Positions 5,195 through 37,413 of a DNA stretch of 64,000 nucleotides are shown here, piece after piece. The notes beneath the pieces were generated by a model. It saw only the letters and a program-made list of their open reading frames with translations. It had not been told where the DNA came from and made no database searches. Numbering within the stretch: the stretch's first letter is position 1; the number at the start of each line of letters is the position of its first letter. Source of the stretch: a virus. The stretch spans positions 64,001 to 128,000 of the IMG/VR virus record IMGVR_UViG_3300032308_002010. One strand, 5' to 3'. The position numbers and the translations under genes were made by a program.

Positions 5195-7075
5195 TCACGG
5201 CTTCCACCCGCTTGTTGTGCCTGTTACGCCAAACTGCTCGCCCTGCGCTAATGCCGGCACATAACTGCTTCCCGCGGTATCGCTACTTAGCCCGCGCTGG
5301 ACGCTATTCATAAGTCCTTTTTCCTGATACGAACCCAACATGCGGGTCATCCAGTCCGGGTCGTTTGAGATATTCGCCATGCCGCGCACCATTTCAGGCT
5401 GGAACGGCGGCGGCTCTTTATGGGCTTGAATCGTTTTTACGCCGTATTTATTCAAATTGCTCAGCACGTTTTTACCGATCTTTGTGCCAATTGAATAGTG
5501 CAATACCGGTTTTTCAAGATAATGCCCGGTTAATGTGTTAGGCGCGGCAGAAACGCTGCCTTCGCGCGGCGTCCAATTACGCTCAATAGTTGAATACGGC
5601 ACAACGTCGTCGGGTACGTAATCGCCGTACTCGTCATTTAATCGAACGTGATTGACAAGACCGCGCGCCAGTAGCTCGATGTTGCGCCTGTGGGCTGTAA
5701 TACCGCTGTTACCCATGACCTGCCGCATTGCTTGTACAAAATAACGCCGGCCCTCGCCTACGCCTTTGTGCCGAACAATTTCTGCTGGATTTGGCATACC
5801 CTCTGATATAACGTCTCCAGCTTCAAGCTCATCGCCTTTTTTAACCGACAAATTTCTCTCTGTCGGCACGTAGTGGTCCTGACCGTTGATCTGCACATAG
5901 TGCCCGCCCTGCGGAGCCGGGCGAACTTCTTGTACCCGGCCGTCGAGCTGCGCGTGCACGGCGCCATCTGGATATTTCTTCGGGACCTGTACAAGCGCGT
6001 TGAGCGCTTTAAAACCCGAAATTGCACCTGCGCCGCCAACACCGCCAGAGTGCTTTGAGCTAATCTGGCTTTGCGTGACAGGTTCCGACAGCGCTTGTGC
6101 CGCGGTAATACCCACATAATCTCCAATAGGCGGCAAACGGCCTTTTTCCCTATAGCCAACGTCTTTTGCATAAACTCCGCCGTCTCCGGGCCCGCCAACA
6201 ATAGGACTGCGAACTAAGATATCTTTAGCGCCGCTCTCTTTCAGATCACGCAAGATCTTTGGCGTCAGCAGCGTATTGCGTTTGTACGGCCCAACCGCGC
6301 GCGCCAGCATTGCGCCCTCATTGTCTGGGTCGTCTACGTCTGTGGGATACCCGCGCTCTTCGGCCATTGCGCGGCGCTCTTCGTCGGTGTCGTCATCGTC
6401 GTCTGCCGTAACGAGCAGGCGGTGTGTCATCTGCGCCAACTGCTTACCGTAGAAGCCGGCATCGGCGGTAGCTGTCTTCAAGTCGATTACGCCCTTGCGG
6501 GTACCGAATGCGCCGGCAAAGTATTCAACGGGGCGTAAGCCTTGGCTATACCCGCGCAGCACAGGAATTGGAATCGGGTCGCCGCGGTGATCAAGGTACT
6601 GCATGTCAGCGCCGAGGATCGAGTTTAGCTGAAACTTATTGCCGACGCCTGCGCCCGCGATTTGATGCACCAGTGGATTGTCTTGACCTTCCGCTTCTTT
6701 GTACACCTTATCCAGCAGTTCTTGCTGTGCCGCCTGCGCGAGCTCAAGTAACTTGATGTTGCGCTGTTTTTCGTCCATCCGGCGGTCGTCAAAGATATCG
6801 CGCATTTGGTTTTGTACGCGCAATTGAACGTTGCGGGCGGCGAGCGTTGGCCGAATGTCTTTAAGCCCGAACGATAGCCCGTTTGTCGTATAGCCCGCGT
6901 CACGCCCAATGTCGTGAAGGCGCTTCATGACCTCGCGATATTTTTCTGGGTGTTTTTTCGCTAATTCGGTCGCAACGCCGGACATCGTCTTCTTGTTAAG
7001 CACGCGGTCGTAGTCGCGCATTTCGGGCGGCAACGCTTCATTAATCAGAAGTTGTCCAAGCGTTGTCTTCAACAT
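5195..7075 (-). CDS. rpoC: RNA polymerase beta' subunit, C-terminal half (RpoC2-like)
   Basis: Starts 'TTLGQLLINE'. Bridge helix 'GLRPVEYFAGAFGTRKGVIDLKTATADAGFYGKQL'; trigger loop 'GITAAQALSEPVTQSQISSKHSGG'. Confidence 0.93.
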   Translation of the reverse strand: MLKTTLGQLLINEALPPEMRDYDRVLNKKTMSGVATELAKKHPEKYREVMKRLHDIGRDAGYTTNGLSFGLKDIRPTLAARNVQLRVQNQMRDIFDDRRMDEKQRNIKLLELAQAAQQELLDKVYKEAEGQDNPLVHQIAGAGVGNKFQLNSILGADMQYLDHRGDPIPIPVLRGYSQGLRPVEYFAGAFGTRKGVIDLKTATADAGFYGKQLAQMTHRLLVTADDDDDTDEERRAMAEERGYPTDVDDPDNEGAMLARAVGPYKRNTLLTPKILRDLKESGAKDILVRSPIVGGPGDGGVYAKDVGYREKGRLPPIGDYVGITAAQALSEPVTQSQISSKHSGGVGGAGAISGFKALNALVQVPKKYPDGAVHAQLDGRVQEVRPAPQGGHYVQINGQDHYVPTERNLSVKKGDELEAGDVISEGMPNPAEIVRHKGVGEGRRYFVQAMRQVMGNSGITAHRRNIELLARGLVNHVRLNDEYGDYVPDDVVPYSTIERNWTPREGSVSAAPNTLTGHYLEKPVLHYSIGTKIGKNVLSNLNKYGVKTIQAHKEPPPFQPEMVRGMANISNDPDWMTRMLGSYQEKGLMNSVQRGLSSDTAGSSYVPALAQGEQFGVTGTTSGWKP

Positions 7076-8052: not shown

Positions 8053-11000
8053 TTACGTATTATCTTCCACAATATGCACTGGGGTGTCCACCTCTATTTC
8101 GCCGCGCCGGTACGCCTGTACGGCATCCTGTTTGCTACGAAATACGCGTGGTTTGGACTTCTTACTAATCCGACTAGACGCCAAGTATAGGCCAGTTTGA
8201 TAGTCTTTGTTAGGCACATAGTGCGCTTTGAAAGTCGACGCTGCAAACAAGTTCTTGCTCGGCAACATCTTTTCTACAGCTTCTTTTGCCGCATCTTCTG
8301 TGCTCGGGACGTGATACTGCATTGCGTCGCCGTCAAAATCGGCGCCAAACCCCTTTGTAATAACGGGGTTTACTTCCATGACTTTGTTCTTAGTTAACTT
8401 GGGGTAGAACGCCATCATGCCGTAACGGTGGAGCACCGGCGCGCGATTAATAACAATTGGACGCGAGGACATCTGCCGGTCTAACTCCGCCCCGGCTTCT
8501 TTGTTCTTGTCCTCGACAGCCTGTAGCGCCTGCATACGCGGTAGACCGCGGCGCACAAGACCCCGCACCACGAATGGCTTGTAAATATCCCACGCTTTCT
8601 CTTCCGGCAGCGCAACCTCGTCCATGTCCAAATCGGGGTTGGGTGTAATGACTGCGCGGCCAACAAGGTCGACTGTCGAGCTGAGCAGTTTGCGCTGGAC
8701 TGTGCCGTACTTGGGCGAGTTACCAAACACATGCCGCAGGAAACCCTTAACGTTGCGCTCGACGTTCTTGGGCTGCTGCGGTTCGCCAAGGCCGCTCACG
8801 GCTTTCATAGAGTCATAGACGCTCAGCCGCTCATCACCGTAATCAGCCAACGTGCCCGACGCTTCTTTCAGCGTGTCATTCGCGTCGAGTAGTTCTTTGT
8901 ACAAATAGTTAGCGTCAGCCACGAGCGGCAGTTTTTTACTGCCCATTGTGCTCACTGGGCGGAAGAGCGGCGGCAAGACGGGAACTTTATTGATCATCCA
9001 GTCTTTGGGGTGCACACCAGTTGTCTCGGCGCTTTTCAAAAAGCCAAGCCGGCGGACAGCAGCATCGCGTAGTGTTTTGCGGCCGGATTTAATATCTAAA
9101 CGCGCCTGCTCAATTGCCTTCGGTAAATTAATACGTTCTAGTGCGGCCTTAATCGCAACGGGTCCGGTTTTGTCGCCCAGCTGCTCACGCCCGGCTAGCA
9201 CGCTGCGGAACTGCTTTTCAGTCATGCCCAGCACGCGCCGAATTGGGTCTTCCATAACTGGGTTAGGAAGCGGCTCGTGCAGCGTAATCTTGCTCCATCG
9301 GTTACCGCCGTGACCGCCAGTCAACGTTTCATCGAAGAGGCCGCCCGCGATTGGCTTGAGCCGGCCCTTCCAGTCAACCGTCTCGGAACTCTTTAACTCA
9401 CGGGCGCCTGCTAGCTCGTCGACGTCTTTGTCGGTCATAGCCATCAGATTTGAGCGCGTACCCTTACGCACGACGTTAATACCAGACGCCTTGAGCTGCG
9501 TGACGAACTTCTCGTAGACATGGGGCACCTTGGGAAGCGGCGGAGTGTAGCCGGCCATGAACTGCGACCAATACTCTGGGTTCGCTTGTCCGCGCACCAT
9601 CTTGGCGTCGCGAATAACTTTACCGGCACCGTGAGAAAGTAACGCGCCAAGGTCGAGCATGCCGACGCGCTTGGCGCCTTCGCTGCCGCCTTTAGCCGGC
9701 GTGCCCTCAGCGGTGTACGCGCCCATCGACCGGCCCTGCGCTTTTGACTCGCTGGTGTGGTGCAACTTCATGAAAAACCGGCTACCAGTCAGTACGCCGC
9801 CGATTTTACGTCCTGTTTCAGGATCGATGACGTCTTCGGTATCTGACAACCCGTGCTTTGAGAGTTCTTTTTGCGCAAACTCAATCAGGTCTGTTTTGTT
9901 ATCAAAGTCTTTAAGCTTGTACGACGAACCGGTTTTAGCTGCGACCTTGCCTAGCGCGGCTTCGATAACCTGCGCGGGGTTAATACGGCTGATCAGGCCC
10001 AGCGGCGAGACGAGAACTTCAAAAGGATTGCCATCGCGGTCTTTGGGCATCTGGTCGTCCGGGACAATCTCAGCCACGACACCCTTGTCGCCAAAGCGCC
10101 CGGTGAGCTTGTCGCCAACGTCCATTGGCGCTTGGTTCTTCACCACAACGCTTACGCCTTTTTTGGTGTGCATAACGTCGGTCACAATACCCGGGGCGTG
10201 ATGCTCCCACGTGATTGTGTCGTTCGTGAAGTTGCCGGCACGACCACGATGCACTTTGCCGTACACGCTGTCTTTCTTCTTAGCCACGAGCACAAGCGGA
10301 TCGCCAAATTTAACTGCGGTGCCTTTTTTAATAGCGCCGTCGTCGTCAAAGTTGTCGAGATACTTTTTGTCGTACTCGGTCGGGAACAAACTCACGAACG
10401 CCTTCTTGCCAACGTGAGTGTTGTCGTCCCACTCGGCTTCGTGCTGATACATATGCTCAGACGTTAGCCGTTTGGATGCAGATTCAGAAATTACGACTGC
10501 GTCTTCGTAGTTCTTGCCGCGAAACGGTAGATATGCCGTACGCAGATTTAAACCGAGCGCTGCGCTACCTTTTTGATCGGTAAAGTTTGAGCGCGCAAGT
10601 AACTGCCCCGGCTCGACGGTATCGCCCGGTTTTACGAGCGGCGTTTGGTGTAAAAACGTCTTCCGGTTGTACGGCATCTCGTTGTATAAATCGATCGTCT
10701 TTTTGTTGCCGTCTTTGTCACGCAGCACTATGCCATCTGGCGTGACATCAACTACCTGCGCGCGCTCAGTGGCTCGTGTCGCCCCGAGCTTTTCGCCCAT
10801 CTCGTCTTCGTGCGACACACCCTCGTCGTCTGCCTTGGCGGATTGCAGCAGCGGCGCCTCGGCGTTTACGAGCGGAAGCGCCTGCGTAAACATACGACTA
10901 CCCATGATCACGCGATGGCCTTTGATCATGGACTTAATCGGTACCATGTTGGACAGTGTCGAGAACGTCGAGTCCATGTTTGGCAGGCTGAACTGCGCTT

Positions 11001-12456
11001 CTTTTCGCGGGACGTACTTGAGCTTGCCATTTACAAGCGCCGCAACTACGGGCAACCCATTGTCTTCTTCACCGGGAAATACCAACGGCGTATCAGCTAG
11101 TTCTTGCGGCGTCTTGTACACCTTGTCGCCGGTTTTCATATCTACAACCGGCGTATACACCTTGCCGTCTGAGCCTTTCATGGCGCCGCGGGCAAACCGC
11201 ATATCAACGCCCACTTTTCCAGACTCGGGCGTGCGCAGGTAGTCGATAAACCCAAGATGGCTGGGTTGAACTGAGCGCGACTCAGCTGGCACGGCGTCCA
11301 GTGAGCCGATGCCCCCTTCGCCCATTCGGGTCACGCGCGTTTGGTGGTCAAAGATCTCGGCCGGGTTGATTTCTTCTAGGCTCGACCCAAGTCCGCTACC
11401 AATGAGCGCGGCTGAGATCGCCTTGTCGAACACGCCGGACGGAATGTGATCGATCGACTTTTTAGCGGTGGCTTTCCAGAGCAGCTTATTAAGCGACTGA
11501 CGATCTTTAGTAAACCGCTCTGCAATAAGGTCTTCCGGGCCGACGACAGACTGGTACACCATGTTGTCGCGGTCGTCGCTCTCGGCCTCGCGGCGATTGA
11601 CGGCGATAAGTTTTTTGGTGATCGCCAGAATAGTTTCCGGCGTCATGTTTTTGTACTCAGACCCCAACGTTCGGCGTGTAACTTCTGGGTCGAGTTCCGT
11701 CTTTGCGAACTCGGCAGCTACGGCTTGAGCTTTAGCGCGCGCGTCGGCACCCGCAACTTGTTTGTTAACAAGCCGGGCGTAGATCTTGTCCATCGTGCCC
11801 GCGTCGCCCTTCTCCATGTTGACGGCGGTAATCTCGTTGCCCCATGCCTTGCGGATGTCCTGATCTGACACGCCCATGGACTTGAGCAACGGCATAAGCG
11901 GGATCTGAGCCTGCCCGATGCTGATCTTGAACACACCGGTTTTGGGGTCGAGGAAGTACCGATGCGAACGGCCTTTACCGGGCAACGTGTTTACGTGCGC
12001 CTCGATCTCGCCGTTGTCTTTCTCGCGGGTAAACACGCCGGGGCGCAAGCGCATCTGGTGGGCCAGTGTGTACTCAACACCACCGTTGACGAACGTGCCT
12101 GAGTCGGTGAGATACGGCACGTGTGCGATCGTGGCGCGGCGCTGGCCAACAGGCTGGCCGGTTTTGTTATCAGTAAGCGTCCACGTACCTTGTAGCCGCC
12201 GGGCAAGTGTCCCTCTGGAAAGGACAGCTTTCTTCTGATCTGACCTTGTAAAACGGTCAGGTCCCGAGTAACCGACATCTTGAAGCTGCAGCGTATAAAG
12301 ATCGTTCTGCAGCGGCTTAAGGCCCTGCGCGCTCGTAAGCGCCTGATTAAAAATGTTATCCCGCATCATGCCGACATCGCCAAACGTGCGCATCGTGGGC
12401 GCAACCGGCGCGGGCATCGTCGGTGATTTTAAATCAGGCAGTTCGGGGGTTGGCAT
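8053..12456 (-). CDS. rpoB: RNA polymerase beta subunit fused to N-terminal half of beta'
   Basis: Beta motifs TDSGTFV, 'NPAEIFDHQTRV', 'GDKLTGRFGDKGVV', 'KLHHTSESKAQGRS'. Then beta' motifs 'GGLFD', 'VPVLPPLFRP', 'NRAPVLHR' and the catalytic 'GADFDGD' (~8326-8346). Confidence 0.95.
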   Translation of the reverse strand: MPTPELPDLKSPTMPAPVAPTMRTFGDVGMMRDNIFNQALTSAQGLKPLQNDLYTLQLQDVGYSGPDRFTRSDQKKAVLSRGTLARRLQGTWTLTDNKTGQPVGQRRATIAHVPYLTDSGTFVNGGVEYTLAHQMRLRPGVFTREKDNGEIEAHVNTLPGKGRSHRYFLDPKTGVFKISIGQAQIPLMPLLKSMGVSDQDIRKAWGNEITAVNMEKGDAGTMDKIYARLVNKQVAGADARAKAQAVAAEFAKTELDPEVTRRTLGSEYKNMTPETILAITKKLIAVNRREAESDDRDNMVYQSVVGPEDLIAERFTKDRQSLNKLLWKATAKKSIDHIPSGVFDKAISAALIGSGLGSSLEEINPAEIFDHQTRVTRMGEGGIGSLDAVPAESRSVQPSHLGFIDYLRTPESGKVGVDMRFARGAMKGSDGKVYTPVVDMKTGDKVYKTPQELADTPLVFPGEEDNGLPVVAALVNGKLKYVPRKEAQFSLPNMDSTFSTLSNMVPIKSMIKGHRVIMGSRMFTQALPLVNAEAPLLQSAKADDEGVSHEDEMGEKLGATRATERAQVVDVTPDGIVLRDKDGNKKTIDLYNEMPYNRKTFLHQTPLVKPGDTVEPGQLLARSNFTDQKGSAALGLNLRTAYLPFRGKNYEDAVVISESASKRLTSEHMYQHEAEWDDNTHVGKKAFVSLFPTEYDKKYLDNFDDDGAIKKGTAVKFGDPLVLVAKKKDSVYGKVHRGRAGNFTNDTITWEHHAPGIVTDVMHTKKGVSVVVKNQAPMDVGDKLTGRFGDKGVVAEIVPDDQMPKDRDGNPFEVLVSPLGLISRINPAQVIEAALGKVAAKTGSSYKLKDFDNKTDLIEFAQKELSKHGLSDTEDVIDPETGRKIGGVLTGSRFFMKLHHTSESKAQGRSMGAYTAEGTPAKGGSEGAKRVGMLDLGALLSHGAGKVIRDAKMVRGQANPEYWSQFMAGYTPPLPKVPHVYEKFVTQLKASGINVVRKGTRSNLMAMTDKDVDELAGARELKSSETVDWKGRLKPIAGGLFDETLTGGHGGNRWSKITLHEPLPNPVMEDPIRRVLGMTEKQFRSVLAGREQLGDKTGPVAIKAALERINLPKAIEQARLDIKSGRKTLRDAAVRRLGFLKSAETTGVHPKDWMINKVPVLPPLFRPVSTMGSKKLPLVADANYLYKELLDANDTLKEASGTLADYGDERLSVYDSMKAVSGLGEPQQPKNVERNVKGFLRHVFGNSPKYGTVQRKLLSSTVDLVGRAVITPNPDLDMDEVALPEEKAWDIYKPFVVRGLVRRGLPRMQALQAVEDKNKEAGAELDRQMSSRPIVINRAPVLHRYGMMAFYPKLTKNKVMEVNPVITKGFGADFDGDAMQYHVPSTEDAAKEAVEKMLPSKNLFAASTFKAHYVPNKDYQTGLYLASSRISKKSKPRVFRSKQDAVQAYRRGEIEVDTPVHIVEDNT

Positions 12457-12459
12457 GGA

Positions 12460-13314
12460 TCACCCCGCCTGCGACTGCTCAACTTGCTTCTTCAGCGCGA
12501 CGATCTCTTCGGGATCGACGTACGTCGGCAGAATACCGGCGATACGCGCTTTCGACTTTGCAGCCTCTTCAACCGCTTTTGCGCGGGAACGTTCGCGGGC
12601 GCGGTCGTACATAAGCTTCGCAGCTAAACCGCCAAGGCCCAGACCCCCGGCCACATATGTACCGCCGAGCGCCGCAGGTACACGCTTGGCTGTGTCGTAC
12701 GCGCTGGTGAGCCAGTCGAGCAACGCCTTTTTCTCGGCGGCTGCTTTTTCACTCGCCGCGTCATATGCGCTATCGAGCGCTTTGGCAGAGCCGCCCGTCA
12801 GCGCGTCGTAATATTCTTTTTCAGCGGCAGCAATTTGCTCCTGCTGATCGCGTTTCTTTTTACGCTTGTGCAGCGTTTCGATTAGTTTGTAGCCGCCGAG
12901 TCCGCCCAGTGCCGCTGCGCCAAACGTCGCGCCTGTACCGAATGACGAGCGAATGACGTTTGGGTCGTACGAGTTCTGGCCTTTGTTTGTCGCGGGCGTA
13001 AACGGCCGTAAAAAGCTGAGCACCGAGTCAGGCAGCATCTTGCCGACGCCCTCGGTGACGTTGTCGTAAATGCCGGCCGCTTTTGTCTCGGTAATCTTCG
13101 GCGTTTCTTCTTCGTTTTCTTCGTACTTGGGTTTGTTTAACGCCTGCGACAATCCGCGGGCCAGATAATACAAACTAGCAGCAGTAGCGCCAGCGCCAAG
13201 CCCGCCCAAACCAGTACGCACAATACGATCGCCCCAGAAGCGCTGGTAATCTTGGGCGGTAGGTTGGCCAACAGGGGCAGCTGGTGGGACGGCATTGTTT
13301 GCGAGTTTTTCCAT
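12460..13314 (-). CDS. Glycine-zipper/membrane-segment protein with K-x-A motifs
   Basis: 284 aa. MEKLA start; three Gly-rich hydrophobic segments (e.g. GLGGLGAGATAA). Confidence 0.6.
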   Translation of the reverse strand: MEKLANNAVPPAAPVGQPTAQDYQRFWGDRIVRTGLGGLGAGATAASLYYLARGLSQALNKPKYEENEEETPKITETKAAGIYDNVTEGVGKMLPDSVLSFLRPFTPATNKGQNSYDPNVIRSSFGTGATFGAAALGGLGGYKLIETLHKRKKKRDQQEQIAAAEKEYYDALTGGSAKALDSAYDAASEKAAAEKKALLDWLTSAYDTAKRVPAALGGTYVAGGLGLGGLAAKLMYDRARERSRAKAVEEAAKSKARIAGILPTYVDPEEIVALKKQVEQSQAG

Positions 13315-13326
13315 AAATGAGGCTCA

Positions 13327-13674
13327 CTAATTTTTGGGCGGAATCATGCCATAAACCTGCGCCCACTCTAACCAAACACGAAAATGTTTATTCTCGTCGT
13401 CCCAGTTGTCGTTGCGCTTCAGTAGCCGATACCAACCGTTCACTATTTTATCGTTTATGTCGTCAAATTCTGCTTTTTGCGTCACATCCCACAGTTCAAA
13501 CATCCGAGACTTAAAATCATACTGGATGTCGATGTTTTCCAGTTCTTCTTGTTTCAAGTCCGCGCGGTTACCGGAACCAATCACCGGAAAACCGTCGAGG
13601 GTGCCGGGCCAGTTCAAGCGGGCGTTGTTGTGCTGCTCGCCGCCGATTTCACCGTGATATTTGCGCAGGCTCAC
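13327..13674 (-). CDS. Hypothetical protein
   Basis: 115-aa ORF in a tightly packed string. Confidence 0.65.
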   Translation of the reverse strand: MSLRKYHGEIGGEQHNNARLNWPGTLDGFPVIGSGNRADLKQEELENIDIQYDFKSRMFELWDVTQKAEFDDINDKIVNGWYRLLKRNDNWDDENKHFRVWLEWAQVYGMIPPKN

Positions 13675-13677
13675 AAA

Positions 13678-14037
13678 TTACCTTTCTGGCCTATAGAGAC
13701 GTAACTTCCTATTTGTCTTAGCGCGGGCTGCGTACGCTTTATAAGCGGCAGCGAGTTCGCGCGCTTTCAAGTCTTCTTCGTCAACGTCGGGCTCCGTCAT
13801 CTTGCCCGCGACGTGCCCGGCTAGTCCGCCACCAACCGTGGCCAGCATGAGCGGCGTATACGCAATGTTTCCAAGCGCCTGAAACGAGTCAGCCATTGTT
13901 GGCAGCTGCATAGCCGCGCTTTTTACAAACGCCTCGGCGGCTTTGATGCGCGTTTCAAGCGCAGCGCCTGTTAACTGCTCTTCGGCGCAGCGGCGAAGAA
14001 ACCCGAGTTTAAAAGCTTCTTTTTCATTGACATCCAT
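13678..14037 (-). CDS. Small K-x-A motif protein with glycine-rich hydrophobic segment
   Basis: 119 aa; 'EAFKLGF...VKSAA' leader, then LATVGGGLAGHVAG. Confidence 0.6.
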   Translation of the reverse strand: MDVNEKEAFKLGFLRRCAEEQLTGAALETRIKAAEAFVKSAAMQLPTMADSFQALGNIAYTPLMLATVGGGLAGHVAGKMTEPDVDEEDLKARELAAAYKAYAARAKTNRKLRLYRPER

Positions 14038-14038
14038 G

Positions 14039-14533
14039 TCAAAACTCTCCGGGCAAAATAAGTTTTTTGGTTGGCGCGCCGACAGTAAAGTCGGGCGCGG
14101 CGTACCGTCCGGTGTCTTTTCCTACCGGTAAGGCACCCGGCAACGCAGATGTAAAATTTGCGCTGCTGGCCAAAGATATCTTACTCTTTCTGCCCGGACG
14201 GTGTCGCATAAACCACGCATCAACGGCGGGATCATCGCGGTCGCCTTGTTCTTTTGCTTCTTTTGACACGGCGACCATGTTTTCAATAGCCTGCTGCAGT
14301 TCTGCTCGGTCGGCTGATAACCACGCGGCTTTTCCGGGGTTTTCAGCGGCCATATGCCGTAACCGCTTGGCCTCGTCGCTTAGAGCCTGCGCCCGCTGTA
14401 GGAACTCTTTGCGGGTAAGCACAAAAAACTCGCCGGTTTCCTCGTCATGCAGGCAGATGAAACCGTTTTGCGCGTAAAATTTAAGCCCGCGATACGAATA
14501 GCATTTGCCTGTTGAGCCGTGAACAGCGGTCAT
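14039..14533 (-). CDS. Hypothetical protein
   Basis: 164-aa ORF in the string. Confidence 0.6.
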   Translation of the reverse strand: MTAVHGSTGKCYSYRGLKFYAQNGFICLHDEETGEFFVLTRKEFLQRAQALSDEAKRLRHMAAENPGKAAWLSADRAELQQAIENMVAVSKEAKEQGDRDDPAVDAWFMRHRPGRKSKISLASSANFTSALPGALPVGKDTGRYAAPDFTVGAPTKKLILPGEF

Positions 14534-14541: not shown

Positions 14542-14955
14542 TTATTTACGTGACGTACCAGACCGTAGCGTACCGTTAGAGCCGGACACGGTCGTAGGAA
14601 TTGGACACCCGTCTTCGTCGCAATCTTCTTTCTTAACGGGCGGAAGCGGATTTGCCTGCAGACGCATCGACGGTCGCGGGCCGGTATTTTTCATCTCGCC
14701 GGACGTGTCGCCTGTATTTGGCTCGCAGTCGGGGCAGTCGGTCCACGGATGGTTGCTGTCGCCGGTCGGGATCTTACCGGTACCGTTACAGCGCTTGCAG
14801 TCTTTGGTGTCAACAATCGGCTTGGTTACCGGCGTATCAGGAAGCAGAGAAGCATAAGCAGCCTCTGTAGCGACCACCCCGACAAAGTCTTTTTTGGGCG
14901 GTTCTGCATGGGTCACCGGCAGTAGCGCTAAAAGCCATTCGATCATCGTGATCAC
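14542..14955 (-). CDS. Signal-peptide protein with DnaJ-type Zn-finger motifs
   Basis: Hydrophobic N-terminus; CKRCNGTG...CPDC. Confidence 0.55.
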   Translation of the reverse strand: MITMIEWLLALLPVTHAEPPKKDFVGVVATEAAYASLLPDTPVTKPIVDTKDCKRCNGTGKIPTGDSNHPWTDCPDCEPNTGDTSGEMKNTGPRPSMRLQANPLPPVKKEDCDEDGCPIPTTVSGSNGTLRSGTSRK

Positions 14956-14976
14956 CTATTAAAGTTTACCAGTTCA

Positions 14977-16002
14977 CTAGATCCGACCGCGCGCGCCGTA
15001 ACTGCGCAGCTTTTTCGGGGGCCAGCCGTTCACGCCAGAAATCGCCACCATGTAACGATTTTTGATATCAGACCACTTAGCCCAGAAAGCGCCAACAGGA
15101 ATATCAACGACAGTCCCAAAAATACGGCGGCTTCCGGCATTCCACGCACCCCAGCTGTTTTGGACCAATACAAGCGGCTCGCCATAAAGTTTTTTAATCT
15201 CGTCGCGGTCGTCTACGCCAAGGTAGGCGAGCGCGTGCGCCCAAGAACCTTTACGTTTACTTACGCCGTTTAAATCACGCTCCGACGAAAATCCCTCGCT
15301 CCCGCAGCTACTCACGCAGTAACCATTGGCGAGAAGATCGCGTAGCGCCTCGTACTCTTCGATCTCGGTGATCGTCTGGACGAGGTGCAACTTACCAACC
15401 TCGCGCCACGCGTCCGGCGGCGTTTTTGAGCCGTATATGCCGGCGTTGCGCGATGAGTACTGCGTAAAATCAACGCCAATCTCGTCATACTTCTTGCGCA
15501 ACCACAAGCCGCTGTCGTTGAGCATAACTTGCGCGGCTTCGGCGCAGCTCCAGCCGTCCCCGCCGTGGCGGCGCCAATTGTAAATCGCTTCAGTACTCAG
15601 CACACCGTTGAGCCGCGCAGTGTCGCTTACTTCCGGGGCGCCCTCAAGCCGATTACTATTCGGGTCAGGGAGGCCGCTGGTAATCTCGCAGCACATTGTG
15701 CCGAGTGCCGCGTTTCGGCTCGACCAACTTACGCAATCACCGCGACCTTGGGCTCCACCCGGAAGGCAATCCGGGTAGAGCTTCAAGATCTCTAGCACTG
15801 GAAGACTTAACTTTCCTTTTCCTGTTTCTTCCAGTGAATATTCCGAGCACGCCATGGCGCCATCGGGGATGCCGCCAGCGGCTTTAATTTGATCGCGGAG
15901 CGCTTCAGCGGCTTCTGGGTTGCCATACGCCCCCACAAAACCCTTTTCATACGCTGCCACAACGTCATAGACGTTTTCAAAAAATTGCTCGGTGTCGGCC
16001 AT
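14977..16002 (-). CDS. Papain-like (C1) cysteine peptidase
   Basis: Oxyanion Q and catalytic C in 'QGRGDCVSW', His in 'WAHAL', Asn in 'QNSWG'. GGAG SD upstream. Confidence 0.85.
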   Translation of the reverse strand: MADTEQFFENVYDVVAAYEKGFVGAYGNPEAAEALRDQIKAAGGIPDGAMACSEYSLEETGKGKLSLPVLEILKLYPDCLPGGAQGRGDCVSWSSRNAALGTMCCEITSGLPDPNSNRLEGAPEVSDTARLNGVLSTEAIYNWRRHGGDGWSCAEAAQVMLNDSGLWLRKKYDEIGVDFTQYSSRNAGIYGSKTPPDAWREVGKLHLVQTITEIEEYEALRDLLANGYCVSSCGSEGFSSERDLNGVSKRKGSWAHALAYLGVDDRDEIKKLYGEPLVLVQNSWGAWNAGSRRIFGTVVDIPVGAFWAKWSDIKNRYMVAISGVNGWPPKKLRSYGARGRI

Positions 16003-16020
16003 TGTATTCTCCTGCTTAAA

Positions 16021-16347
16021 TCAAGCGGTCGGCTCTTCGCCCTTGGTTTCACTCACGAGTGTCACGCCCAGCGAACCGGGCTGCGCCGGCGGCAGCGTGT
16101 CTTCTGCAACAAACGTCAGCGCGGCAGGCTCGGAGCGGTTGCCGGCGTCGTCGATGTCGACCACACGTAGCTCCACAGACGAACCCTGCTCAACTAAAAC
16201 GTCACCTAACTCAGTTGCCGACGGCTCGTAAGCACGAACCTCGCGAGCAGCTTCGGCGCCGTTTACGTACACCGACAGCTCGCGTGTTACTACGTCAACG
16301 TCAACAACCGGACCAACCGAAACACGATACGTCAAAATATCAGCCAT
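16021..16347 (-). CDS. Fibronectin type III-like small protein
   Basis: Likely start MADILTY at 16347; 'VVDIDDAGNRSEPA' is an FN3 C-terminal strand motif. Confidence 0.55.
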   Translation of the reverse strand: MADILTYRVSVGPVVDVDVVTRELSVYVNGAEAAREVRAYEPSATELGDVLVEQGSSVELRVVDIDDAGNRSEPAALTFVAEDTLPPAQPGSLGVTLVSETKGEEPTA

Positions 16348-16477
16348 AGTATTTAAACTCCTAATTTGAAACACTTTTAAACCTGTTGGCGACAGCGGCG
16401 GCGCAAAAAAATGCGCCATAACTATCAACAACCAAAAAACCAAGCACAGTAAAACAACAGCTGCTTCAGCGCCCATG

Positions 16478-16930
16478 TTATTTAGCCGCTACCACCGAAC
16501 TTGCAACGATGTCGCACGCCTCTCCGAGTTTTTTCAGCGTTTCCGGGTTACCGGGCATCACGTCATCGGTTCCAACTGCCGTCTGAAACACGCGCTCAAT
16601 TGCAACGTCCAGCCCGGGGTACTTGTTCACCTGCTCGATTGCCAAATCTAACGTGCGGCCGTGCAGCTCTTCCCACTTCTCTGTCGTCGTGATGCGGTCG
16701 GGCGCTGTCGGGCGTTGAAGTACTGTTTTCAAAGATGTGTATACGTCGTAGATCCGTGCGCGATCAGCAGCAGTGCCGCCGGTCAGCAGTTTGACGATCT
16801 CAGCGTCTGTTGCCGCGTCGGCGATAACGGGACGAACAGCCGGTTTATTAAACACCGGCAGCGTCGGACCGTTTGGAAAAACTAACGACGTTAAAAGCAG
16901 TAAACCGGCGACCCAAACAAGCTTTTTCAT
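16478..16930 (-). CDS. Membrane-anchored/secreted hypothetical protein
   Basis: Likely start MKKLVWVAGLLLLTSLVF at 16930, with ATGA overlap to the upstream gene. Confidence 0.6.
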   Translation of the reverse strand: MKKLVWVAGLLLLTSLVFPNGPTLPVFNKPAVRPVIADAATDAEIVKLLTGGTAADRARIYDVYTSLKTVLQRPTAPDRITTTEKWEELHGRTLDLAIEQVNKYPGLDVAIERVFQTAVGTDDVMPGNPETLKKLGEACDIVASSVVAAK

Positions 16931-17205
16931 ACAACACCCTTTGACGGTTGTTCGTACTCCACGATCACGCGCAATAAAGACGTGCAAGCATCTACGCCAC
17001 TTTGGCAACCCTCAGCCGCCAATTTATCGCGCAGCTTGGTAACGGCAAGGATGTCGTCCACAAGCGGAACGGCAATAGACTCCTGCACAATCGGACCGCC
17101 GACAACAGCCGACGCGCCGCGAAGTCTGGCAAGAATTTCATTGCGATAAGTTACCGCAAGCAAAGCTACAAACAGCGCGCTGCTTACTAATTGAAATGTA
17201 GTCAT
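16927..17205 (-). CDS. Small N-terminal TM protein
   Basis: 92 aa, single hydrophobic N-terminal helix; GGAG SD. Confidence 0.6.
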   Translation of the reverse strand: MTTFQLVSSALFVALLAVTYRNEILARLRGASAVVGGPIVQESIAVPLVDDILAVTKLRDKLAAEGCQSGVDACTSLLRVIVEYEQPSKGVV

Positions 17206-17240
17206 AGGTTCTCCAGTTTGAGTCAGGAAAAGTTATTTTA

Positions 17241-18068
17241 TCACGTTTGCGGAACGAGCACATACGGGCGGCCGTTAATTATCAGTGTACCGCCGACGTT
17301 AATGCCGGCGTCTTTGGTGAGTGGATACGCTTTCGTGCGTTTGCCATACAGCTTGATAATTTCTGCGATGTCGCCTTCTTGCGGCTTTGTGACGTTTGGG
17401 TCGTAGTAAGGCGCCATCAGATTGCCGGCATTCAAATGCGGCAAACCCAGCGCGTGCCCTAGTTCATGGCAGATGACGGCCACCGCCATGTTGAAGCTCC
17501 AGTCCTCAGCTTCGTCAAACATCTGATCGAGCTGGACGTTTTCTGCAACACCGCACGGCAGCTCACTCCACGCTAGCGTACCGCCTTTGTTATCTAAACC
17601 GCTTTTTTTGCCGGCACCTGACCGCGCATAGATGTTTGCTTTTTTATGCGTTTCAACTCGCACCGGATCAATAGCGCAAACTTCGGCCCACTGAGAAAAC
17701 GCAATGTCGTAAGCCTCGGCGACTTGCGCGTTGGTTAAGCCGGGCAGATGCAGCTCGTGATAGTACGAGATGTTCGGCATCGGCCATTTGCACGGGTCGC
17801 CGTCAGGTGAGGTGATATTGAAGTCGGGCAGACCGCAGCGATGACGATTAATACGATGCGCTGTTTTTGGGCCGACTGTACCGGTCGGATTTAGGCCGTT
17901 GAACTCCTGAAACGTACGAACCGCTTTCTGCAGCTCGGCGCCTTTGATTTTCTTGACTTGCGCCAGCGTTTTGTCGCCGAAATACCCCAGCACGTGGAGC
18001 CGACGTAGAATCTCGCTAATTGGCAAGACATGGGCCGTACTTGGTTGTTTCGCTGGCTTCCGTGCCAT
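17241..18068 (-). CDS. Matrixin (M10) zinc metalloprotease with peptidoglycan-binding domain and cysteine switch
   Basis: PG_binding_1-like 'LQKAVRTFQEFNGLNPTGTVGPKT', switch 'HRCGLPD', Zn motif 'HELGHALGLPH', Met-turn 'LMAPYY'. Confidence 0.88.
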   Translation of the reverse strand: MARKPAKQPSTAHVLPISEILRRLHVLGYFGDKTLAQVKKIKGAELQKAVRTFQEFNGLNPTGTVGPKTAHRINRHRCGLPDFNITSPDGDPCKWPMPNISYYHELHLPGLTNAQVAEAYDIAFSQWAEVCAIDPVRVETHKKANIYARSGAGKKSGLDNKGGTLAWSELPCGVAENVQLDQMFDEAEDWSFNMAVAVICHELGHALGLPHLNAGNLMAPYYDPNVTKPQEGDIAEIIKLYGKRTKAYPLTKDAGINVGGTLIINGRPYVLVPQT

Positions 18069-18088
18069 AATGCGCGTCCCTGCAAAGG

Positions 18089-18493
18089 CTATTGCGCGGC
18101 CGCCAACTCCATGAGCCCTGCTGCTGCCGCGTCGTCGATTGTATCACTTAGCGTGTAGACGGCGCCAACGACAGGGTTATCTCGCGTATATTCGACGCCT
18201 GTTTTTTCGCAGTGGTCGCGCCACACGTTATTTAAACGGCGCCGTAAACGCATCAATTTACGCGGCGGGAGTGTTCGTAACTCGCGCATGGCTTCTTGAA
18301 TTTTTTCTTCGCTGTTCTGTTCTCGGCAATGAATGATCACCTGCACAATGATCGAAATGATCATGACGATAGTGAGCGGATCAAATTGATACGAGTTGTT
18401 ACCCTGAGCGACAAGCTCATCCGTGAGCCTGTCTCTCAGGGCTGCCAGCGCAGGCGACTCGTTCACACGGCGCTGCAGTTCTTCGTTAGTCAT
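18089..18493 (-). CDS. Single-TM hypothetical protein
   Basis: 134 aa; 'FDPLTIVMIISIIVQVIIHCR' hydrophobic helix. Confidence 0.6.
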   Translation of the reverse strand: MTNEELQRRVNESPALAALRDRLTDELVAQGNNSYQFDPLTIVMIISIIVQVIIHCREQNSEEKIQEAMRELRTLPPRKLMRLRRRLNNVWRDHCEKTGVEYTRDNPVVGAVYTLSDTIDDAAAAGLMELAAAQ

Positions 18494-18864
18494 TAGTTTA
18501 CCGTCCGTTCAGCGCGCATTTTCTCGACGGCAACTGCTTCCATGTAGTGATAGCGTGACTCGATCATCTTCGCACGAATCTGCGTACGGCCGCTGAGATA
18601 CTTCCAGATGAGCGCGCTGTTGACAACAATAATCTGGGTCGCGCCAAGAACAGCAGTGATTGACTTTGTTAGCGTTTCGGCTTGCGAGTAATCAATCCAG
18701 CCAATGAGCGCGGCCACTGTCACAAGGTTCCCGACAGCGCCAAGCGCCATCGTCCAAAACTCGGGTGTCAGCCAGCTGTTGGGATCGACGGTGGTGTCGT
18801 CTACGGCAGAGTTTAAAACACGCAGCTCTTCTCGAACCGTATCAATGCTTTTTTTTGTAGCCAT
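18493..18864 (-). CDS. Holin-like membrane protein
   Basis: Likely start MATKK at 18864 (GGAG SD). 'LTPEFW' precedes two TM helices, followed by a charged C-terminus. Confidence 0.55.
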   Translation of the reverse strand: MATKKSIDTVREELRVLNSAVDDTTVDPNSWLTPEFWTMALGAVGNLVTVAALIGWIDYSQAETLTKSITAVLGATQIIVVNSALIWKYLSGRTQIRAKMIESRYHYMEAVAVEKMRAERTVN

Positions 18865-18927
18865 TACGTTCTCCTTGTAACAAAGTGATTTGTATTTTAT
18901 CGCGCACCGTAAGACGCGCAAGACTGT

Positions 18928-19944
18928 TTAGCGCCCGAAAAGGCTCGGGACAACGGCGTGCATCATCCCGCCCCACAACCCCATGTCTTGTAATTTAGCC
19001 TGCCCGGCCGGGGTCAAACCAGCCATGGCCGACAACGCCTTACCAGCCACGGTAGCTGTAGCTAACCCGACACCAGCTGACGCAATCCCACGCACAACAT
19101 CAATTGGACGAATAATCGGCGAGCGCATGTTAGTGCTAATGCCGCTCATTAACCCGGTAGTCGCGGCCGCAAACTGCGGCGGCGTGTGGTTTTGAAAACC
19201 GCGATACATGCCCATATTCACGTCCTGCCACGCGGCGTTATTAAACTGCGGCACAAAAACAGTCGGCGCAAACATTGGGTTCGGCGCGCCAAACGAAGAC
19301 TTTTTACGCAGCTGCTCTTCATACGGATACACGACCGGCGTTTTGTTATTTGTCAGCAACCCGCGCAGCATGCTCGTGCGCAGCGCCTTCGAGTTGGCGT
19401 ACGAGTTTAAACCGGCCACACCGACTCCGCTTAGTGCGCCCATCAATCCAAGCGTGCGGCGCAGTTTGCCGCGCTCTAAATAGCGCTCGGGAAAAAACTG
19501 CTCAGCTAGCGTGCCGGCGCCGTAGCCCACCCCGCCAGCCAACAAACCAGTCATGATGCCGTTAGATAGCGGCGTCGGGCCGCCCAGCATTGCGTTGCCG
19601 GTGTTCCATACTGTCGGTAGGCCCGGCACCAAAGAACCGCGCTTTACCAAAATTTCTTCATTCCAGTCTGGCTGAACCTCGTCGTATAAAACGCTGGCTA
19701 AACCGCGTTCGCCGTCATAGATAGCCTGCTCGTAAACCGCGTACGCCTGCTTGTCGATCGGCCCAGCTGAATACAACGTAATTGCGTTGGTTTCGGGCCT
19801 CCACGTGGCGGCAGTGGTGGCCAAGATACCGGCTTTGAGCGCCGCTTGTTCATGCGCCACTTTTGTCCGTACTGCCGCCGGCAGAAGCGTTGTCACGCGT
19901 TCTGGAACAGTCTGCCACTCGTATAGTGTGGTCGCGGATTCCAT
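18928..19944 (-). CDS. Glycine-rich membrane-segment protein
   Basis: 338 aa; several Gly-rich hydrophobic helices. Confidence 0.6.
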   Translation of the reverse strand: MESATTLYEWQTVPERVTTLLPAAVRTKVAHEQAALKAGILATTAATWRPETNAITLYSAGPIDKQAYAVYEQAIYDGERGLASVLYDEVQPDWNEEILVKRGSLVPGLPTVWNTGNAMLGGPTPLSNGIMTGLLAGGVGYGAGTLAEQFFPERYLERGKLRRTLGLMGALSGVGVAGLNSYANSKALRTSMLRGLLTNNKTPVVYPYEEQLRKKSSFGAPNPMFAPTVFVPQFNNAAWQDVNMGMYRGFQNHTPPQFAAATTGLMSGISTNMRSPIIRPIDVVRGIASAGVGLATATVAGKALSAMAGLTPAGQAKLQDMGLWGGMMHAVVPSLFGR

Positions 19945-19947: not shown

Positions 19948-20217
19948 TTACCGATTAAGCGCAAATAAGAATTTTACAAACACTAACAACCACGCCAAAA
20001 AACCGCTGATAGCAAAAAAAACAACAACCCCGCTGGCGCCGACAGCGCGACCCAGCTTTTCAATTGGAATGTCTTTCAGCAATCGCCACGCCTTGAGATA
20101 ATCAACGGCGGCCGGCGGACTTGTCGGCGTCGCTGGGGTCGGCGCCGGGTCTGGGTTAGTCGGCTTCTTTTTGCGCCATAAAAACGAATTCAAACTATCG
20201 AGGAGCGAGTTTGCCAT
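19948..20217 (-). CDS. Small C-terminal TM protein
   Basis: Likely start MANSLL at 20217; hydrophobic C-terminus. Confidence 0.55.
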   Translation of the reverse strand: MANSLLDSLNSFLWRKKKPTNPDPAPTPATPTSPPAAVDYLKAWRLLKDIPIEKLGRAVGASGVVVFFAISGFLAWLLVFVKFLFALNR

Positions 20218-21661
20218 TTGGTTTCCCCCAGTTTTGAATCGTGTCAAAGATATCATTGCCGTAAAGCTGCGTAGCTTTGTCAAACGTGTTCATTCGCGGT
20301 AGCGTTCCAAGCGCGGCAGCTTGCGCCATCTGATAGCGATAATTTGGATCAAGCGCTGTGCGGTAAATATGCGATTTTTGTCGCGCGGCCAGAATAAAGT
20401 CACCGCGCTGTTTGGCCTTCAACAAGTGATCAGTAACGTTTGCAAACACCGGCTTGTTGTGGTCGTAAACAAACGGCGTACGAAAATCGAGCAGGTTACG
20501 AAACTGCTGCGCGTATACGCTGCCGGTCGCCGCTTTGACCTGCGAGCTAATCACACCGCCGGGAGCATGAAACCGAAACTTTGTCGGCGCGTGTGTGATG
20601 CCTTTGTATTTTGGCTTTGGGTCATCTACGTGCCAGTCTTGCGGCGATTGCGCAATCAGTCGCCGCAGGATTTCGTGCTTGCGGTCATACTCGCGGCGAT
20701 CAGAGTGCGTTTTTGCCGCACGTAGCTCGTCGAGGATGTTGGGTTTCTTTGCCTTGGGCTGTGCTTCTGCGCCCTTCTCTATTTCTTTGATTTTTTCGTA
20801 GTACTGCGGATCTTCGGACAGGTGATCCTTGGCAATTTCTTTGGCAACTTGATCGTCTCTTGTGTGCTCGTGCTCATGTTTAGCTCCTTCGGCTAAAGCA
20901 GGTTCAGAAAAGTCCCGATCGGGTAAATTATCGCCCGCGCCACCCTGTAACAAGTCTTTTTTTACCGTGCGGGAAAGATTTTCGTCCCGGTCGGGTATAT
21001 TGCTGGCGGCTTTGAGTTCTCCCCTACTGACGGGGTTACTAAACCTATGCCCTTCGGCGCTTTCGGCAGGGGTTTCGTAACCCTTGGCTTTGCCGTTATC
21101 GAGCAGTACGCCTTTTCGGCGCGCAGCGACTGTGATGTGAAACGGATGGTCGTCGTTCTGGAGCGCCGATAAACCGTAACTCTTGCGCAGTGCTGATAGG
21201 GCCGGGCTACTTATTTGAATCGCCCAGACTTTGCTTACGCCGTCAACGTTTTTGACGTCAATCTCTTTCAGCCCGCCCAACGTGTAGCCAAACATGTGGC
21301 CGCGCTCATTGATCTTGTCGGCACCGATAGCTGCTACTTCATCGGCATTCATGACCGATATATGCGCATTAACGATGTGAGACTCGACGTTTGGGACGTT
21401 GAACACACCAGCTGTTGGAAGCTCTGCACCCGGCTCGACTAGCGCGTCAAATACGCCGCGCACAAGGGCGTTCGGTACAGATAACAAAAGCCAGCCGGAT
21501 TTGGCGAGGTAGAGGCGGCCGGCAAGGGGATAACTCGTCGCGGCTTGCTTGTTACCGCCGCGGTAAAGCCAACCGAGCGCGTTGCCGGCTGAATAGGCCG
21601 GATGCTCGCGGAAATACTGCGGGTCCCAAGCGAGCGGGTCGAGTGCTGAGAGGCTGTCCAT
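20195..21661 (-). CDS. Modular protein: 2H phosphoesterase + DUF5661-like + further modules
   Basis: Two HxS/T motifs (NAHISVM, PFHITVA); 'EHEHTRDDQVAKEIAKDHLSEDPQYYEKI' module. Modules are separated by KQAA, LKAA, EKGA and VKAA. Confidence 0.7.
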   Translation of the reverse strand: MDSLSALDPLAWDPQYFREHPAYSAGNALGWLYRGGNKQAATSYPLAGRLYLAKSGWLLLSVPNALVRGVFDALVEPGAELPTAGVFNVPNVESHIVNAHISVMNADEVAAIGADKINERGHMFGYTLGGLKEIDVKNVDGVSKVWAIQISSPALSALRKSYGLSALQNDDHPFHITVAARRKGVLLDNGKAKGYETPAESAEGHRFSNPVSRGELKAASNIPDRDENLSRTVKKDLLQGGAGDNLPDRDFSEPALAEGAKHEHEHTRDDQVAKEIAKDHLSEDPQYYEKIKEIEKGAEAQPKAKKPNILDELRAAKTHSDRREYDRKHEILRRLIAQSPQDWHVDDPKPKYKGITHAPTKFRFHAPGGVISSQVKAATGSVYAQQFRNLLDFRTPFVYDHNKPVFANVTDHLLKAKQRGDFILAARQKSHIYRTALDPNYRYQMAQAAALGTLPRMNTFDKATQLYGNDIFDTIQNWGKPNGKLAPR

Positions 21662-36564: not shown

Positions 36565-37413
36565 CTATTTTGACGCATTAATATCTAAATCAGCCACGGG
36601 GTTCGGCCCCAATGTGGCCTGCGCCGCCAACTCACGCTCGTGCTTCTGAATTTCAGATTCTACCCAATCTTTGTACAAACTCACACGGGTAAACGCGCTG
36701 TCGTCGCCGTACGTGCCGTCTGGTTTCCCGTCGGCGTGCGCTAAAAATGAGTTAATTCCCGCTAATTGATTGCCAATGAACATTCCGCCGCCAGAATCTC
36801 CGGGGGCAATCATGAACTCTAGCGGAAACCGCCCTTCTTTTCTGGGCGAGCACAAAACTGTTGCCAGATGCGCGGACAAAAGCTTGTTGTGTCCCGCCCG
36901 GCGTTGATTATCTGTTTTTGTGGCGCCCGTAATAAAGTTTCCAGTTGAGCCCCAGCCCGCAATCGTCACGGCTTGGCCTATTTCATCTGTGTTGCTGTAC
37001 AGCGGCACATAGAACGCTAGTTTGAAGTCTTCGGCTACGTAGCACAGCGCAATATCGTGCAGCCCGATTTTGTCTGCGTTGTAATCTTTGTGGTGCACCT
37101 TATAGACAACGCGATGTTTCTTCTCGCCCACATGGATTACGTTGTTATTCGATCCATTGATGACGTGTGCGGCGGTTAACGCCCAGTGCGGCCGGATGAT
37201 CACAGCCGAGGCAAGCTGTTCGTGGTGTTCGTCGCACTTCGTGCAGTCAATGTCGTTGGTGATCCGCACGACAAAGGGAAACTGCTTGCCAAACTCGACA
37301 TACTTGGCGTCTGGTGTGCTGGGGTCGATCGTGCCGGCCATCGCAGCGCGCGAAGCCGCCAGAAGAATGATCACAAAGCGTAGCAGGCGGGCGCACAGTT
37401 CTTGCACGTTCAT
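36565..37413 (-). CDS. Secreted trypsin/chymotrypsin-like (S1) serine protease
   Basis: Signal peptide; catalytic triad 'TAAHV', 'HDIAL', 'GDSGG'. Confidence 0.9.
   Translation of the reverse strand: MNVQELCARLLRFVIILLAASRAAMAGTIDPSTPDAKYVEFGKQFPFVVRITNDIDCTKCDEHHEQLASAVIIRPHWALTAAHVINGSNNNVIHVGEKKHRVVYKVHHKDYNADKIGLHDIALCYVAEDFKLAFYVPLYSNTDEIGQAVTIAGWGSTGNFITGATKTDNQRRAGHNKLLSAHLATVLCSPRKEGRFPLEFMIAPGDSGGGMFIGNQLAGINSFLAHADGKPDGTYGDDSAFTRVSLYKDWVESEIQKHERELAAQATLGPNPVADLDINASK

Follow-up and report, generated by a model that had tools for sequence, protein, structure and literature searches.

The classical phage lysis cassette is that of lambda, in which S, R and Rz/Rz1 supply holin, endolysin and spanin, and a redox-controlled form of endolysin is known in phage P1, where Lyz is a signal-anchor-release (SAR) enzyme. 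Enzymes of the papain-like clan are also employed by viruses to cut wall peptides; these include the CHAP, NlpC/P60 and Amidase_5 endolysins as well as PeiW and PeiP, the pseudomurein endoisopeptidases of archaeal viruses that cut non-murein walls (PMC10318531). In Listeria, a phage-derived metzincin (Mtz), together with a TIMP-like lipoprotein (Tim), changes the cell wall and promotes phage-mediated lysis (PMC8235301). Here, we compare with these systems a block of eight genes, P1 to P8, in a 64,000-nucleotide stretch of viral DNA (hereafter, the window; bases 64001-128000 of the single 193,815-bp virus record IMGVR_UViG_3300032308_002010; all feature coordinates are window positions). An earlier, sequence-only reading had singled out this block, and the gene content and layout that it described hold: all eight genes are on the minus strand between 18921 and 14542, with intergenic gaps of -4 to 35 nt. 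From the position and gene content, we infer that the block is a phage lysis (cell-exit) module in which P7, a papain-fold protease, stands in place of the classical endolysin, an interpretation to which we assign a probability of about one half (0.5).

P7 (14977..16002, minus strand; 341 aa) is the most conserved gene of the block, with 63-95% identity across the loci of the clade of ~200-kb phages to which this virus belongs. The papain-like C1 peptidase that had been proposed from the sequence is confirmed structurally: the AlphaFold2 (AF2) model of P7 (pLDDT 94.7, pTM 0.92) matches xylellain of Xylella fastidiosa (PDB 3ois) with a Foldseek E-value of 7e-10 and a VIA Z-score of 20.3, at a root-mean-square deviation of 2.9 Å over 228 residues, and more than 40 C1 enzymes are matched, further VIA hits with Z-scores of 16-18 including papain, Der p 1, Cwp84 and procathepsins B, K, L and X, the procathepsins at 17-18. 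The two-lobed fold of family C1 is evident, and so are the catalytic Cys and His, the oxyanion-hole Gln and the (N/Q)SWG Trp motif; Q85, G88, C90, H256 and W284 are invariant in a 64-sequence alignment, and position 282 is Asn or, in a few sequences, Gln. The zymogens among the matches align from residue 10 of the model, so that the N-terminal ~60 residues of P7 look like a propeptide. Unlike xylellain and the procathepsins, P7 lacks a signal peptide, is phage-encoded and has fixed exported partners, and identity among the closest structural matches is 12-19%. No Pfam match was obtained for P7 at E <= 0.1, so that the PF00112 (Peptidase_C1) profile does not recognize it, and the best match of the P7 profile in the PDB, to a papain-like enzyme, had an E-value of only 0.26. 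P7 is best treated as a new C1-like family within the clan CA papain fold, and it is predicted to be a signal-less cytoplasmic protease with an intact Gln/Cys/His active site.

The P7 family comprises at least 861 clusters at 50% identity. Several long members (470-1084 aa; P0122, P0131, P0132, P0145, P0165, P0181 and P0232) contain inteins (Hint plus LAGLIDADG), some of which interrupt the sequence precisely between GD and the catalytic Cys (GD-intein-CVSHS, the Cys being the +1 residue), and others before the Cys aligned with C153 or directly after the catalytic His. The location of inteins at the catalytic Cys and His suggests that the active site is conserved and that the P7 gene is not dispensable.

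The lysis role is attributed to the block mainly because P5, P7 and P8 together sit at a lysis-cassette position, among small transmembrane (TM) proteins, in unrelated phages. Relatives of P7 with 36-56% identity are encoded in different, smaller phages and prophages and, in most of the fetched loci, iterative hidden Markov model (HMM) searches detected P5 directly upstream and P8 directly downstream of P7. P5-P7-P8 is the conserved core, newly recognized here. In locus L057, small proteins are followed by a P5-like protein, P7, a lipoprotein P8 (lipobox LVGC), two small TM proteins, an HNH gene and the small and large terminase genes. L060 has, in succession, a tail fibre, TM proteins, a P5-like protein, P7, an inserted HNH gene, a lipoprotein P8, a TM protein and a sigma factor. 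In L091, the trio is located upstream of terminase, capsid and tail-tube genes come next, and planctomycete-specific host domains (PSD, PSCyt) flank the element; this locus lies within a complete 7.8-Mb Pirellulaceae chromosome and therefore is a genuine integrated prophage. Pfam scans of ±8 kb around six distant P7 loci recovered terminase, portal, prohead protease, RusA and resolvase but, among the families listed (all 22 for scan A7 and 25 of 27 for A8), no muralytic family. Thus, as in the lambda-type cassette, small TM proteins adjoin a signal-less hydrolase that is flanked by a periplasmic protein with an N-terminal anchor and, in many relatives, by a small lipoprotein that contains Cys, with the trio placed just upstream of terminase or after the tail fibres. 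Unlike in that cassette, a papain-fold protease, P7, takes the place of the glycosidase, amidase or known peptidoglycan peptidase; its gene is located between two spanin-like genes; and P8, which in this phage has no lipobox, contains a zinc ribbon.

That P7 substitutes for an endolysin is suggested also because the genome encodes no recognizable muralytic enzyme. The record is linear (IMG/VR) and ~95% complete by the CheckV estimate, and Pfam scans of all called proteins yield a tailed-phage gene set (terminase, baseplate J, DNA polymerase A, primase, helicase and RecA), along with a multisubunit RNA polymerase, six collagen-repeat proteins, an actin-like protein and a trypsin-like protease. 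We searched the genome in all six frames for ten muralytic families (E <= 0.05) and scanned it protein by protein with Pfam (E <= 1e-4). Across the complete 193,815 bp, there was no six-frame match to Phage_lysozyme, Amidase_2, Amidase_3, SLT, GH25, CHAP, NlpC/P60 or M15_4, and none to GH19, for which the test is weak, a control search having likewise matched nothing. For M23, only sub-threshold signals surfaced, two of them inside RNA polymerase genes and another, at E 0.02, interrupted by a stop codon; these M23-like signals were mostly dismissed as a hybrid-barrel motif inside RNA polymerase subunits. Neither did the protein scans of the genome show a muralytic family among the families listed (all but 3 for scan A2); a weak match among the unlisted families there, or among the 2 unlisted for A8 and the 9 unlisted for a further scan, A13, is not fully excludable, a gap that, for the phage's own genome, the six-frame searches cover. 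The absence of amidase, glycosidase and M15/M23 motifs, remarked upon for the block in the sequence-only reading, therefore extends to the whole genome, and a canonical endolysin-holin pair elsewhere, which that reading had named among the observations that would count against it, was looked for throughout the genome and not found.

The two constant partners of P7 are both predicted to be exported. P5 (16478..16930, minus strand; 150 aa), the true start of which is the ATG at 16930, combines a hydrophobic signal or anchor sequence with a Pro-rich linker and a putatively helical domain of ~110 aa, and is found directly upstream of P7 in loci L053-L060 and L092-L098 (iterative HMM, E 1e-13 to 1e-36 within the locus set). 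Because the family alignment contains no invariant residue, P5 is probably not an enzyme; on the same grounds, the possibility that it is a hidden SAR endolysin was ruled out. P8 (14542..14946, minus strand; 134 aa), directly downstream of P7, had been taken for a zinc-finger protein with a signal peptide, and indeed, it has a short hydrophobic, signal-like N-terminus followed by a Cys4 zinc ribbon, CxxCxGxG...GDG...CxxC, in which C50, C53, G57, D63, C71 and C74 are invariant. In eight lineages, the P8 homologue encoded downstream of P7 has a lipobox. In both Pirellulaceae loci (L091:9005-9601; L093:9039-9680), a P8-type zinc ribbon is followed by a thioredoxin-like CxxC domain, which in L093, where a lipobox is present as well, matches Thioredoxin_2 at 28.1 bits (cut-off 27) and has the motif CPPC, and in L091 matches Thioredoxin_7 at 5e-5 and has the motif CAFC; the P8 of this phage contains no thioredoxin domain. 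In L098, the place of P8 downstream of P7 is occupied by a 72-aa Pro- and Cys-rich exported protein. Such features of P5 and P8 would fit either a spanin-like pair of inner- and outer-membrane proteins, the candidate inner-membrane member being P5 with its hydrophobic N-terminus, Pro-rich linker and putatively helical ~110-aa domain, or a thiol-redox helper for a periplasmic cysteine enzyme. In a three-chain complex prediction for P7, P5 and P8, the score was independent of P7, and nothing was concluded from it.

The ~200-kb clade supplements this core with a second protease that also appears to be latent. P3 (17241..18068, minus strand) had been described as a peptidoglycan-binding matrixin, of which the matrixin part stands and the peptidoglycan binding does not. 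The protein matches Pfam PG_binding_1 at 5e-10 and Peptidase_M10 at 4.7e-18 (66 bits against a cut-off of 24), and its residues 40-244 align with full-length human pro-matrix metalloproteinase 1 (proMMP-1, PDB 1su3; E 2.5e-18) such that HRCGLPD falls on the cysteine switch PRCGVPD, shared with MMP-9, the zinc site HELGHALGLPH is in register and NLMAPYY falls on the Met-turn. Accordingly, P3 has the prodomain with its cysteine switch, the zinc site and the Met-turn that define the matrixins (M10A, MMP); no hydrophobic N-terminal segment is present, so the secretory signal peptide of matrixins is lacking. The supposed peptidoglycan-binding domain is the MMP latency prodomain, which Pfam files under PG_binding_1, and therefore provides no evidence of peptidoglycan binding. 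Matches of P3 to PHROGs annotated as endolysin were rejected as a family assignment; they cover the prodomain only. P3 thus resembles vertebrate pro-MMPs, such as proMMP-1, and the bacterial matrixin karilysin in its prodomain, RCGxPD switch, HExxHxxGxxH motif and Met-turn, but differs from pro-MMPs in lacking a signal peptide and a hemopexin domain, in its short C-terminal tail, and in being phage-encoded next to holin-like genes. Its identity across the clade loci is 61-92%, and it is absent from the distant P7 loci. In outline, the combination of a phage-origin metzincin with a lipoprotein partner is reminiscent of Mtz/Tim, with the difference that Mtz is a secreted protein of a Gram-positive wall, where ordinary lysins act beside it.

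The candidate holin is P1 (18493..18864, minus strand; 123 aa), which has two predicted TM helices, an amphipathic N-terminus and a charged C-terminal tail; translation likely starts at the ATG at 18864, preceded by an AGGAG site, rather than at the TTG at 18921 to which the open reading frame can be extended. P1 is conserved in about 70 loci, all within the clade, with N46, G55, N82 and W87 invariant, and has no Pfam or PHROG family, so that it does not belong to a described holin family. Small size, at least one TM helix, a charged C-terminus and a place beside the putative lysin are all seen in P1 and agree with the holin-like label given to it earlier, at the level of topology, which is not specific to holins. 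The TM protein and the two membrane-anchored proteins of the sequence-only reading are likewise borne out: P2 (18089..18493, minus strand; 134 aa), the start of which overlaps the stop of P1, has one central TM helix and no family match in Pfam or PHROGs; P4 (16927..17205, minus strand; 92 aa) has an N-terminal TM anchor; and P5 has the signal or anchor described above. Pfam and PHROGs yielded nothing usable for P4, P5, P6, P7 or P8. The predicted fibronectin type III (FN3) protein, P6 (16021..16476, minus strand; 151 aa), matches no Pfam family, and its assignment as a TM-anchored FN3-type beta-sandwich comes from the AF2 model (pLDDT 87.7), with a TM helix at residues 2-23 and seven strands forming a sandwich at 34-123, which Foldseek matches to FN3 domains at E about 2e-4 (TM-score 0.6-0.75, normalized by target). 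An internal Met44 of P6 (window 16347), preceded by AGGAG, is invariant in 18 homologues, with the first beta-strand of the fold upstream of it; conceivably, the gene may yield two products, one anchored and one soluble.

The lysis module would operate along the following lines. P7 and P3, signal-less and zymogen-like, suit enzymes that wait in the cytoplasm for a holin and switch on outside. Late in infection, P1, perhaps together with P2, would open the inner membrane, allowing the latent P7 and, in this clade, the pro-MMP P3 to reach the periplasm and become active there, P3 by release of the cysteine switch, and P7 by loss of its N-terminal segment, possibly aided by the thiol chemistry of P8. 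The activated proteases would then cut the wall, either the peptide stems of peptidoglycan or envelope proteins, with P5 and P8 serving either as a spanin pair of the inner and outer membranes or as a redox helper. What the ~200-kb clade would contribute to this scheme is the holin-like pair, the second latent protease and the anchored FN3 protein. A parallel can be drawn with Lyz of phage P1: periplasmic thiol/disulfide chemistry could turn on a latent lysin, and the groups that might take part here are the P3 cysteine switch, the P7 catalytic thiol and, in P8, the CxxC motifs or the thioredoxin domain. Unlike Lyz, the block contains no SAR domain, and the redox partner would be a separate exported protein.

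Several observations weigh against this interpretation. The holin role of P1 rests on topology, the lipobox of an outer-membrane spanin is missing from P8 in this phage and its clade, and the block joins RNA polymerase genes without a break, an unusual neighborhood for late lysis genes. Many proteins of this genome belong to no family, so that an unrecognized muralytic enzyme might be encoded elsewhere. No relative of P7 is seen in any cultured phage: tblastn searches with P7 and P3 against 50,697 GenBank phage records found no match. To our knowledge, C1-family peptidases have not been described as lysins. The known cysteine lysins are CHAP, NlpC/P60 or Amidase_5 enzymes (PMC10318531), which form other papain-like structural clusters than P7; they are minimal NlpC/CHAP or transglutaminase-like domains combined with wall-binding domains, whereas P7 is a full two-lobed C1-type enzyme with none. 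The literature that we searched on planctomycete phage endolysins and on C1-type endolysins contains no description of a system of this kind, nor of any planctomycete phage lysis system.

The planctomycetes come into consideration through the genomes in which the P7 family was found. For searches of prokaryotic contigs, one genome per species, the 64-sequence P7 alignment was too diverse, and patterns were derived from a 14-sequence alignment, which favors near homologues. Of the 12 P7 loci recovered, 8 are labeled Planctomycetota (two Pirellulaceae, two Kuenenia, and one each assigned to Planctomycetia, Pirellulales, Planctomycetaceae and Planctomycetota); the remaining four are two contigs of an Aquaspirillum-labeled bin, which belong to this phage clade, one Hyphomicrobiales bin and one Saprospiraceae bin. 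In even samples of the phyla, excluding the seed genome, the P7 profile matched 5 of 400 Planctomycetota, 2 of 400 Bacteroidota and 0 of 400 Pseudomonadota, a modest enrichment, and the Bacteroidota modules lie on two chromosome-size contigs. Thus, as far as these counts indicate, the P7 family has its center in planctomycete phages but extends beyond them. What recurs outside the ~200-kb clade is the P5-P7-P8 core; in iterative HMM searches over the fetched loci, neither P1, P2, P3 and P4 nor the flanking genes were detected beyond that clade. Matrixin-like domains, found in 18 of 301 Planctomycetota against 1 of 300 Pseudomonadota, were dismissed as a host indicator, because at identities of no more than 43% they do not identify a host. 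For the ~200-kb clade, the public-bin labels on its contigs disagree as to the host (Betaproteobacteria, Sphingorhabdus and Aquaspirillum).

What the module attacks is the point on which the principal alternatives diverge. It is tentatively possible, although clearly less probable than the lysis module taken broadly, that we are dealing with an ordinary holin-endolysin-spanin system in which P7, and possibly P3, are peptidoglycan peptidases or amidases that have escaped labeling; this alternative overlaps the lysis reading and differs from it in substrate only. A conventional target would agree with the occurrence of the P7 module in ordinary Gram-negative lineages, namely, the two Bacteroidota contigs and the Hyphomicrobiales bin, and with uncultured-phage proteins in BFVD that pair a C1-like domain with a wall-binding part ("peptidoglycan binding-like", "N-acetylmuramidase" or copper-amine-oxidase-type), which suggests that P7 could be an unrecognized peptidoglycan peptidase. 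Moreover, planctomycetes do possess peptidoglycan. Conversely, all strong structural neighbors of P7 (xylellain, cathepsins and Cwp84) cleave proteins, there is no CHAP or NlpC/P60 enzyme among the best 50 structural matches in either listing, P7 has no wall-binding domain, and the domain of P3 that might have bound peptidoglycan is a latency prodomain. Given the ordinary Gram-negative lineages and the wall-binding fusions, we keep a peptidoglycan peptide as a target of P7 at least as likely as a protein.

The protease-based lysis of a protein-rich planctomycete envelope, suggested when the block was first noticed, survives in part: the lysis-cassette position of the core speaks for it, but the module is present also in Bacteroidota and in the Hyphomicrobiales-labeled bin and, therefore, is not tied to such an envelope. 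In its strongest form, which we regard as rather doubtful, P5-P7-P8 would be a widespread undescribed lysis system in which a latent papain-type protease and an exported thiol/zinc-ribbon, thioredoxin-linked partner dissolve envelope protein instead of peptidoglycan, with planctomycete phages as the main users and with a redox-switched MMP added in the ~200-kb clade. Disulfide-cross-linked wall or surface-layer protein, or the tethers of the outer membrane to the wall, would be possible targets.

It seems improbable that the block is an accessory, envelope-conditioning module that sensitizes the cell to a true lysin yet to be identified, blocks superinfection or trims surface proteins. There is a precedent in the phage-origin pair of secreted metzincin and lipoprotein that alters the Listeria wall and raises the sensitivity to phage lysis (PMC8235301), the matrixin is clade-specific and hence dispensable for the family at large, and a secreted trypsin-like protease is encoded elsewhere in the genome. 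However, P7 and P3 lack the signal peptides of secreted conditioning factors, few genes of the region are as conserved as P7, the inteins at active-site residues of its family are more typical of indispensable genes, and no other lysin candidate was found in the genome. Still less credible is the proposition that P3, as a collagenase-like enzyme, and P7 mature the collagen-repeat or Cys-rich fibres or other virion parts of the phage itself, the membrane proteins being unrelated neighbors: the six collagen-repeat proteins of the genome and the best alignment of P3, with the interstitial collagenase MMP-1, make fibre processing possible for P3, but it ill suits the distribution of the trio, which in small phages lies outside the head-tail block, upstream of terminase, with exported proteins as the constant partners of P7 and no collagen-repeat protein within ±8 kb of the distant P7 loci among the families listed (all 22 for scan A7 and 25 of 27 for A8).

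If P7 is a lysin, it would represent a new class of phage lysis enzyme, one that is nameless in Pfam and PHROGs, and the existence of phage genomes that seemingly lack an endolysin would be explained. The P7 family also offers a first handle on how phages exit from planctomycetes, whose envelope has long been debated, and the pairing of latent proteases with a thiol- or thioredoxin-type partner suggests a testable, redox-timed activation step. New, beside the core itself, are its location next to terminase genes within a planctomycete chromosome, the fusions with thioredoxin, the intein sites and the phylum counts, and it is in itself unusual for a candidate lysin to have inteins at its catalytic Cys and His.

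The eight genes do not form a separate unit. Nearly all genes of the virus are on the minus strand, and the tight gene string is wider than the block, running from 19944 to 12460 and then straight into the RNA polymerase beta/beta'-N gene, so that it continues on both sides. Scans for promoters and terminators around the block gave no signal above chance relative to shuffles, and the TAGCTAAA motif does not occur near it. The whole string, from a 2H-phosphoesterase gene to the RNA polymerase, is syntenic in about 50 IMG/VR contigs, several of them 198-205 kb long, and within this region P7 and P3 are among the best-conserved genes, with P1 and P2 far more variable. Upstream, 6 nt from P1, lies the gene for a clade-specific 338-aa protein (18928..19944, minus strand), the C-terminal segments of which are rich in Gly/Ala and weakly hydrophobic. 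Downstream, four genes (12460..14533, minus strand; 164, 119, 115 and 284 aa) are packed at 1-12 nt and keep their synteny throughout the clade loci, though not in the distant ones. These four look co-transcribed with the block, and their membership of the module, like that of the 338-aa protein, is uncertain. Because the clade-specific neighbors at 18928-19944, 13678-14037 and 12460-13314 (all minus strand) contain glycine-zipper-like Gly/Ala-rich hydrophobic segments, the membrane-directed gene set may reach beyond the block.

Directly downstream of the string, RNA polymerase beta is fused to the N-terminal half of beta' (1467 aa; window 8053-12456, minus strand), and a separate gene for a 626-aa protein with Rpb1 domain 5 follows (5195-7075, minus strand). 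Just upstream of the block, a 488-aa protein (20195-21661, minus strand), syntenic in the clade, contains both a 2H phosphoesterase "Swiss Army Knife" domain and DUF5661. The trypsin-like serine protease mentioned above (GDSGG; 282 aa; 36565-37413, minus strand) has a signal-like N-terminus and may be a third protease of this genome with the envelope as its target. A 361-aa protein (40250-41335, minus strand) has an N-terminal NAAA-beta match (3e-6) of the Ntn-hydrolase type, a linear-amide hydrolase. Roughly two-thirds of the proteins of the genome belong to no family; among those that do, the actin-like protein, encoded within genome stretch 59,966-107,812, matches Pfam Volactin at 3e-62, and a SET-domain protein and capsule/polysialyltransferase-like genes are present beside the six proteins with collagen triple-helix repeats.

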